A DNA stretch of 64,000 bases from the NCBI GenBank assembly GCA_964016885.1, contig OZ024742.1, positions 333,684,001 to 333,748,000 on the forward strand, written 5' to 3'. The notes beneath the pieces were generated by a model. The model did no database searches. It saw only the letters and a program-made list of their open reading frames with translations, and was not told the origin of the DNA. Origin of the DNA: Eledone cirrhosa. Taxonomy: Eukaryota. The position numbers and the translations under genes are program-made. Shown here piece after piece: positions 5,623 to 7,759 of this stretch (the stretch's first letter is position 1; every line of letters starts with the position of its first letter).

Positions 5623-6209
5623 ATATACGTATATAGCTCTCTCTCTCTCTCCATGTCTCTCTCTCTCTCTCTCCCTCTCACTCTCTCTCTCCCCCTCTCT
5701 CTCTCCCCCTCTATATCTCGCTCTCGGTCTCTCTCCCTCTCTATCTATCTATATATATATTTATAGAGAGAGAGAAAGAGAGACATAGAGAGAGAGAGAG
5801 TGAAAGAGAGTGAGAGAGAGAGATAGGTATATATATATATATATGTGTGTGTGTGTGTGTGTGTGTGTGTGTGTGTGTGTGTGTGTGTGTGTGTGTGTGT
5901 GTGCGTGTGTATATATATATATATATATATATATATATATATATATATATATATCACGATAAATTAACGGAGGCATAGGCCGTCGCTATTCCCTGTAAAT
6001 AATGTGCTCAAAGGGGAAGAGATCCTGAGCCCTTTAAAATATAATATGTTGAGAAGGTAACACACCAGAGAGAGATATATAGTGCGTTATCAATAATACA
6101 GGGAAAAAACCACCAGTGTATGGAATCTATAACCTATGAAAGGCAGACTATAGACACGATAATTAAAAATATAAATTAAAGCATAAATAAATACCTTTAT
6201 AACTATATA

Positions 6210-6290
6210 ACACACGTACAAATCCAAAGATATGTTTCACCAGAAAATTTGTTGAAAGAAATGGTCTAGTCTCGGTTCATCAGCGTGTGT
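6210..6290 (-). ncRNA. Type I hammerhead ribozyme, GUA triplet
   Basis: Minus strand: ACACACG CTGATGA ACCG..TGGT GAAAC ATATC TTTG GATTT GTA CGTGTGT; 7-bp stem I, extended stem III. Confidence 0.9.
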
Positions 6291-6750
6291 AAGGCCATAC
6301 ATTTCAGACAACACTAAGAGAATTTTACAATTGACTGTCCAGCTACACGTGGGAGAGAGAAGTCACAGCGTGTTTAAGGGCAGTGAACCAGTGGCCTCTG
6401 AGAGACGAACTGCTAGAAAGGGCAGCCCAAAGCCACTCAGAGAAGTGTGCTCAACCAAACAGAGATAGGAAAGACTGTTGTTAGGAGCGAAATATCACGA
6501 TAAATTAACGGAGGCATAGGCCGTCGTTATTCCCTGTAAATAATGTGCTCAAAGGGGAAGAGATCCTGAGCCCTTTAAAATATAATATGTTGAGAAGGTA
6601 ACACACCAGAGAGAGATATATAGTGCGTTATCAATAATACAGGGAAAAAACCACCAGTGTATGGAATCTATAACCTATGAAAGGCAGACTATAGACACGA
6701 TAATTAAAAATATAAATTAAAGCGTAAATAAATACCTCTATAACTATATA

Positions 6751-6831
6751 ACACACGTACAAATCCAAAGATATGTTTCACCAGAAAATTTGTTGAAAGA
6801 AATGGTCTAGTCTCGGTTCATCAGCGTGTGT
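6751..6831 (-). ncRNA. Type I hammerhead ribozyme (second unit)
   Basis: Identical to 6210-6290, shifted by 541 bp. Confidence 0.9.
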
Positions 6832-7759
6832 AAGGCCATACATTTCAGACAACACTAAGAGAATTTTACAGTTGACTGTCCAGCTACACGTGGGAGAGGG
6901 AAGTCACAGCGTGTTTAAGGGCAGTGAACCAGTGGCCTCTGAGAGACGAACTGCTAGAAAGGGCAGCCCAAAGCCACTCAGAGAAGTGTGCTCAACCAAA
7001 CAGAGATAGGAAAGACTGTTGTTAGGAGCGAAATATCACGATAAATTAACGGAGGCATATATATATATATATATATATATAAAGAATTAATATATCTACC
7101 GACATAAGTATACAGATGCATACGTCTTTCATATATATATATATATATATATATATATACAGAACGAAAAATGTATATTTAATGCATTTAAACATGACAA
7201 AATTCATCGTCGCTAGAACTGTCGTCAAAAGAGCTAAATACCGTTAAAGAGAACGATGCGAAAATTGCCTCAGGAGACAAATATAAGCGGCCAGTGGTCA
7301 ACAGGGAGGACAATTCACTATGTGGGTGAGAGGCAGATGAAATATAGAAGAGATTGTAAGAGTGGAGGAGAAGGAGAAGTCCTCCTCCTCTTTAATTTTT
7401 TCTATATTTCATTTGAAATTAAACAAATAAACAACCATGCGGTCATTAAATTAACAAACAGGACATTTATAATAAATTTAAGTGAAAATCTATAGGCGCA
7501 TGTGTTTTTGTTGTCAGCATAACCCTGCCGAAGATTAGCAATATATAAATATATACATACTGTATATATATCATAATGAATTGGGAACTGGTTGCTGAGC
7601 TATTGCCGATGAACATCTAATTCTATCTAACCTGATTTATATATATATATATATATATATATAAAGGATCAATCGATTTCCGTCAAATCGGACCGAGGAA
7701 ACAATGTGTTTCTCGGTCTTTCCAGTTGCTAATACTATCTACCGGTCGCAACTCCAGGT

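Follow-up and report, generated by a model that had tools for sequence, protein, structure and literature searches.

A 541-bp tandem repeat with minus-strand hammerhead motifs inside a TA microsatellite, probably a novel non-LTR retrozyme family from a cephalopod

The 64-kb stretch of DNA analysed here (hereafter referred to as the window) contains a tandem repeat at positions 5951–7059, flanked on both sides by a TA microsatellite. A lag scan gave 541 bp as the only strong period, with 540 matching positions against 194 or fewer at other lags. The repeat consists of two 541-bp units (5951–6491 and 6492–7032) and a 27-bp piece of a third (7033–7059). All of them are assigned to the minus strand, which places the 3′ end of the inferred sense RNA in the first unit, and the 27-bp piece forms a terminal redundancy or a tail-like extension. 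The left microsatellite is (TA)22.5 (5910–5954), whose last four bases (5951–5954) are common to the element end; the right one is (AT)12.5 (7057–7081), and it shares three bases with the end of the partial unit, of which just 20 of the 27 bp are not also readable as microsatellite. An initial annotation of this DNA had described two units and the start of a third within (TA)n, which is what we observed, except that the end lies one base further (7059 rather than 7058). It had also called the dimer exact. The units are in fact separated by five differences, all transitions (99.1% identity), located at 5986, 6183, 6197, 6330 and 6358 and at their +541 partners.

The repeat has a GC content of 0.39 and appears to be non-coding, as initially annotated: the longest ATG-started frame spans 26 amino acids and the longest stop-to-stop frame 70, and a Pfam search with the 70-amino acid frames returned no match. 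The units abut directly, with no arrangement of LTRs around a central region. We found no tRNA gene in the unit, only one-mismatch look-alikes of a B box without an A box.

On the minus strand, each unit carries a complete type I hammerhead motif with all 13 core nucleotides. In the first copy (6204–6301), the core elements are CUGAUGA (6283–6277), GAAA (6238–6235) and the positions 6218–6217, with a GUA cleavage triplet whose N17 is at 6217. Stem I has 7 bp (6290–6284/6216–6210) and a predicted extension (6301–6296/6209–6204) with an internal loop, and stem III (6235–6229/6224–6218) has six pairs and a U.U mismatch beneath a 4-nt loop. The motif also has the A15.1–U16.1 pair, an NUH triplet and an open-ended helix I. 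The second copy (6745–6842; CUGAUGA at 6824, GAAA at 6779, N17 at 6758) is identical. The minus-strand hammerhead with a 7-bp stem I and an extended stem III, reported in the initial annotation, is therefore present in both units, and its helix III is much longer than that of the minimal Penelope type, as had been pointed out. The predicted cuts, between 6217 and 6216 and between 6758 and 6757, are exactly 541 nt apart and would free a monomer of that length (6217–6757), in agreement with the proposed release of a 541-nt RNA. No plus-strand hammerhead core was found in the unit even when one mismatch was allowed.

In 20,000 dinucleotide shuffles, the unit never produced a type I pattern, whether the search rule was loose or strict. 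Rfam gave no hammerhead match to the unit at the gathering score or at E ≤ 10, only chance rows driven by the microsatellite. This blank is uninformative, because the textbook hammerheads of a 467-bp array elsewhere in the window (see below) were missed as well. Located 85 nt further upstream on the sense strand, at 6366–6382 and 6907–6923, is a degenerate second copy of stem I and the 5′ core, a possible competitor for the pairing of stem I; having no GAAA and being absent from a variant loose end, this copy was rejected as a second ribozyme. A look-alike of the hammerhead 5′ half at 22290 was likewise discarded: 64 of 200 shuffled queries scored as high.

Helix II can be drawn in two registers. 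In register A, the textbook form, A6276 pairs with U6239 and is followed by two C–G pairs and then a bulge. Its predicted pair probability is about 0.001 in the window copy and about 0.01 or less in every context that we folded, growing transcripts included. In register B, positions 6270–6265 pair with 6239–6244 with a predicted probability of 0.77–0.91; the helix starts six bases later than in A and leaves 6 nt after A9. This 6-nt segment (6271–6276, and 6812–6817 in the second copy) is thus the 5′ strand of helix II in one register and an insert in the other. The window copy has no G10.1–C11.1 pair. The hammerhead fold would cost 4.7 kcal/mol in register A and 2.2 kcal/mol in register B relative to the free ensemble. 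In the local minimum free energy structure, a rod, the hammerhead core is buried, some of it by pairing with stem III, which is why the pair probability of that stem is low (about 0.13). The isolated motif folded no better than its shuffles (104/200). The predicted 541-nt monomer beat all 100 of its shuffles (z = −3.3); as a circle, 59% of it is predicted to be paired. Slow or regulated cleavage is predicted for the window copy, since the favoured fold lacks the textbook helix II. The expectation in the initial annotation that the RNA should cleave as a monomer rested on the long stem III and left helix II out; with the predicted probabilities given above, it cannot be regarded as established.

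To survey the family, we compared one 541-bp unit with four (X1, X4, X6 and X16) of 18 listed public sequencing runs, leaving out X7–X12, which had small word shares. In X1, 1,877 contigs matched the unit, 514 of them at 99% identity or above, 590 at 95–99%, 540 at 90–95% and 233 below 90%. X16, a RAD run, yielded 2,466 matching reads, and X4 and X6, which bear two organism labels other than that of X1, yielded five and six contigs, respectively. The head-to-tail junction occurred in contigs of X1, X4 and X6, and hence under three organism labels, and 282 reads of X16 continue towards it. The unit boundary at the window locus is therefore one permutation of a tandem or circular unit. Exact-pattern scans of metagenome contigs, viral contigs and prokaryotic genomes gave no matches.

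Both window units have a C at 6296/6837, which is a minority allele in the family (T makes up 93% of the X1 depth and 267 of 354 X16 reads), and unit 1, but not unit 2, differs from the family at 6183 and 6197. The allele common to both units thus fits one template followed by later changes in the window dimer. Among the best 40 of 114 variant rows, none fell in the 39 positions of the core, stem I and stem III (P = 0.045), and seven disrupted a pair predicted for the monomer, where 12.5 would be expected (P = 0.014); both values are modest, coming from the best 40 of 114 rows and from related copies that are not independent. In loose ends at 6230 (15 contigs of X1 and 168 reads of X16), stem III has a G.U pair in place of the U.U mismatch, and its loop gains two bases. 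We treated a further loose end in X1 (6026, three contigs), which joins TA-rich sequence at a different position, as a hint only, and likewise the opposite-strand joints in single low-depth contigs (X1 6038/6445, X1 6041/6094 and X6 6008/6230). Read-end pile-ups in X16 at 5962, 6164, 6174, 6324 and 6329 were rejected as element ends; we read them as restriction ends because the library is of the RAD type and they lie at or beside AATT-like sites, the enzyme being deduced from these sites.

The family variants also bear on helix II. One X6 contig, of depth 3 and possibly erroneous, has both G6270 and C6239, turning the A–U pair of register B into the canonical G–C, with no second T>C change in X6 that would restore register A. 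A subfamily in X16 has U6269 (110 of 206 reads), and the X16 loose end of 168 reads has A at 6240 and C at 6239. If in phase, as similar read counts suggest, the X16 variants would form G–C, U–A, U–G and A–U pairs in register B. Matching changes at 6275/6276 were absent from the best 40 of the 114 variant rows. The mixed consensus of X1 (agreement 0.65) is compatible with both registers, and in register B one mixed consensus would have a seven-nucleotide insert. Thus, the unphased variants appear to covary in register B (A–U to G–C and C–G to U–A), and they lean towards B over A. Register B itself may reflect a catalytic variant that has 6 nt inserted after A9, a conserved off-state or an artefact of folding. 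One extra nucleotide at the 9/10.1 junction is known in hammerheads (PMC4209133). If register B works, the 541-bp family would resemble those in having extra sequence at this junction and differ from them in having six or seven nucleotides there. We found no described hammerhead with a longer insert at 9/10.1 in our literature searches or in section 8 of PMC3088659, and the searches gave no cephalopod retrozyme; the supplements of PMC7229834, PMC4209133 and 10.64898/2026.07.22.740005 may list some of either.

The element ends have 4 nt (left) and 3 nt (right) in common with the microsatellite, a TA microhomology that 17 and 42, respectively, of the 541 unit positions would allow by chance (about 0.002 jointly). 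No target duplication is readable inside the microsatellite at this locus. The nearest predicted cut sites are 266 and 302 nt away from the two ends, and the insert contains both of these sites intact. With both sites preserved and neither end coinciding with one, a cleaved linear monomer is excluded as the template. The template would rather have been a circle, which is our preferred reading, or an uncut multimer. In an anole Penelope element, unprocessed RNA is reported to be the main insertion substrate, with the ‘tail’ arising from internal reverse transcription start sites, and its hammerhead to need protein and to be dispensable for insertion (PMC11167929); a circle is therefore not required to explain the 27-bp extra piece or the permuted ends. 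The insertion end at 7059 coincides with the loop of a predicted sense-RNA hairpin in the 27-bp redundant region (5965–5988, 7046–7059), which is possibly a signal for the reverse transcriptase to start or jump.

A candidate source of the reverse transcriptase is represented in the window. Using tblastn, we identified three Neptune-like Penelope GIY-YIG remnants, at 12–284 (plus strand), 23211–23478 (minus strand) and 40701–41096 (plus strand). The last one is 5′-truncated, is not part of the dimer and adjoins (TA)n at 40628–40660. A CX4CXXC linker is present in its frame, and database searches gave three relatives, full-length RT plus GIY-YIG proteins of 659–758 amino acids (50–68% identity). 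By sequence, these remnants are Penelope-like elements (PLEs); Neptune-like is a likely class for them, assigned by the linker as described in PMC8557442 rather than by a tree. Pfam searches covered 148 of the 155 high-complexity frames of the window (all but the five shortest and two duplicates that stem from the 467-bp array); an RT domain at 53875–54501 alone exceeded the cut-off, and one GIY-YIG match was sub-threshold and subsequently confirmed by the other searches. Across the 64-kb window, tblastn with three full-length PLE proteins gave no match near the dimer. The flanks of the three remnants showed no convincing similarity to the 541-bp unit, with one borderline score of 37 against a shuffle maximum of 36. 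The initial annotation had raised the prospect of an RT-encoding PLE that shares the unit as its pseudo-LTR (pLTR); within the window, we found neither an RT/GIY-YIG ORF at the dimer nor convincing similarity to the unit in the remnant flanks. Because the 40701–41096 remnant starts beside (TA)n, its sequence indicates that a TA-associated class of candidate helpers, Penelope, exists in this genome. (TA)n is a reported preferred target of Penelope elements with RT and GIY-YIG domains (PMC8557442). PLEs have also been annotated in Octopus vulgaris, in a paper whose accessible text makes no mention of ribozymes (PMC13282606).

Because a dimer with a hammerhead in each unit belongs to a many-copy family, it is likely a retrozyme. 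We estimate at roughly three in four the probability that this 1.1-kb insertion, a non-coding, many-copy tandem repeat with hammerheads, is an animal non-LTR retrozyme copied into a TA microsatellite by a Penelope-like retrotransposon. Retrozyme-like elements are a described class with monomers of 51–972 bp (10.64898/2026.07.22.740005), and the 541-bp element has every testable defining feature given for the animal non-LTR type in the accessible text of PMC7229834, 10.64898/2026.07.22.740005 and PMC7761336. The resemblance includes head-to-tail non-coding repeats with one type I hammerhead per unit (PMC7229834, 10.64898/2026.07.22.740005), a GC content below 50%, the absence of an LTR layout, many copies, a monomer predicted to pair with itself, co-occurrence with PLEs and the dimer itself, which is a described form. 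The differences are the unit length, which falls within the overall range but exceeds the 170–400 nt of the tested invertebrate retrozymes (PMC7229834), a helix III of 7 positions where 1–2 bp are usual, the ambiguous helix II with its possible 6-nt insert after A9, and the location within (TA)n, where no target duplication can be read. The 541-bp repeats probably form a new family within this known class, and their host is probably a cephalopod. As a retrozyme, it would extend the known class to a probable cephalopod host with a cleanly bounded insertion.

Some observations weigh against the retrozyme reading. The five differences between the units would require later mutation or RT errors, the hammerhead fold is predicted to cost 2.2–4.7 kcal/mol relative to the free ensemble, and no convincing sequence link was found between the unit and the flanks of the three Penelope remnants. 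Also, only one of nine tested Xenopus retrozyme dimers cleaved in vitro (10.64898/2026.07.22.740005), although for the same reason inactivity of the window copy would not be unusual.

By analogy with known elements, a PLE likely mobilises the 541-bp family, from circular or uncut multimeric RNA. In a scheme modelled on Cervera and de la Pena 2020 and on Li et al. 2026, transcription of tandem copies would proceed on the minus strand and the hammerheads would cut after GUA to give the 541-nt monomer, which a host ligase would circularise; RtcB is reported to have circularised axolotl and mussel retrozyme monomers in vitro (PMC7229834). Next, (TA)n would be nicked by a GIY-YIG/RT protein of the Neptune type, and the left TA tract would serve as primer at the AT match of 4 nt that lies 266 nt downstream of the cut site. 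The template would be copied for 2.05 rounds, and the target rejoined at the 3-nt match. With their TA microhomology, ends far from cut sites and 2.05 units, the junctions bear on how retrozymes are primed and on which Penelope clade moves them.

The alternative that survives best, to which we assign a minor but appreciable chance, is that the locus is the 5′-truncated tandem pLTR end and tail of an autonomous PLE, produced through internal initiation on an uncut multimeric transcript and without a circle. The (TA)n target and the short terminal extension are reported signatures of Penelope (PMC8557442, PMC11167929), and the opposite-strand joints in the single low-depth contigs of X1 and X6 are of a kind typical of Penelope inversions. 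Moreover, many Xenopus retrozymes are described as matching pLTRs, 24 of 57 families matching known elements, mostly PLEs (10.64898/2026.07.22.740005). The pLTRs of EN+ Penelope elements of the Neptune and Poseidon types (PMC4209133, PMC8557442, PMC11167929) share with the 541-bp locus a type I hammerhead in tandem terminal repeats, the (TA)n target, a short terminal extension and ends away from the cut site. Against such an origin, however, three runs contain direct joints between units, no ORF separates the hammerheads, and the window locus has neither an RT/GIY-YIG ORF nor a hammerhead of the minimal kind described for metazoan PLEs (PMC4209133), its helix III being long. The described tails are 30–40 bp, compared with an extension of 20–27 bp here, and the flanks of the three remnants in the window show no convincing similarity to the unit. 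In X1, the share of matching contigs that continue into unlike sequence is 0, which is a weak argument since contigs of repeats are short. Long helices III do occur in PLEs of fungi and protists, whose type I hammerheads (PMC4209133) resemble ours in that dimerisation should be unnecessary and in having no recognisable loop I/II consensus; the 541-bp unit differs from them in residing in an animal genome, in being a non-autonomous repeat and in its ambiguous helix II register.

It is considerably less probable that a monomer with the 27-bp extension was inserted and was later duplicated in place at the DNA level, by slippage or unequal exchange, in which case the dimer would say nothing about rolling-circle copying. 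The 27-bp direct repeat at the ends of such a monomer would promote duplication, the minority alleles common to both units would fit equally well as with one RNA template, and local amplification of tandem arrays has been proposed by Li et al. 2026 (10.64898/2026.07.22.740005). Even so, a permuted insert of 568 bp, longer than the unit and with an intact cut site in its middle, would still have to be explained, and the head-to-tail junction in the other runs is independent of the window locus. It is very improbable that an ordinary satellite, or a repeat of unknown nature, here contains a dead hammerhead or a chance resemblance to one: the blank Rfam result, the rod-shaped minimum free energy structure and the missing G10.1–C11.1 pair would suit it, but the motif was not reproduced by shuffling, the best 40 of 114 variants spare its core and stems I and III, and some variants improve stem III.

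Returning to the retrozyme reading, helix II is the one part that may surprise ribozyme specialists. A tentative proposal, which we regard as rather doubtful as a whole, is that the family contains a natural hammerhead variant with 6–7 nt between A9 and helix II that keeps the canonical G10.1–C11.1 pair in the shifted register, or else that the two registers form an on/off switch by which nascent multimers would cut and the 541-nt circle would stay closed, in a cephalopod retrozyme whose junctions record microsatellite-primed rolling-circle copying. If the shifted register were catalytic, standard hammerhead descriptors would miss a class of motifs. If it were an off-state, it could offer an answer to how retrozyme circles avoid being cut again, a question left open in the text of PMC7229834.

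The window contains other hammerheads and repeats. A 467-bp array at 46876–49109 (plus strand; 4.8 copies, 99% identical) has a textbook type I hammerhead in each unit, with the core at 46978 and every 467 bp thereafter, a G10.1–C11.1 pair and a 5-bp helix II, and it lies outside any (TA)n tract. Kinship between the 541-bp and 467-bp units was rejected, the scores of 21 and 41 lying below shuffle maxima of 36 and 44; the two families are unrelated in sequence, as the initial annotation had held. Adjoining a SINE-like repeat is a lone hammerhead at 8085–8175 (minus strand, core at 8149), whose stem I comprises 14 bp and whose helix III is short and AT-rich; on the minus strand, the core of a weaker relative lies at 50792. 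The RT frame at 53875–54501 (minus strand, Pfam RVT_1) is located in a GC-richer region of about 52–56 kb, and its best named relative is a cuttlefish protein (only 49% identity), a weak pointer to a cephalopod host; judged by sequence, the frame is probably a decayed LINE. The SINE and microsatellite load of the window presumably resembles that of octopus DNA. Finally, inverted-repeat or palindromic fragments were found at 21690–21790, 22120–22190, 31937/31946, 45499/45653 and 61935/62825, some of them centred on hammerhead-like 5′ cores, and these arrangements may be inverted Penelope-type ends.
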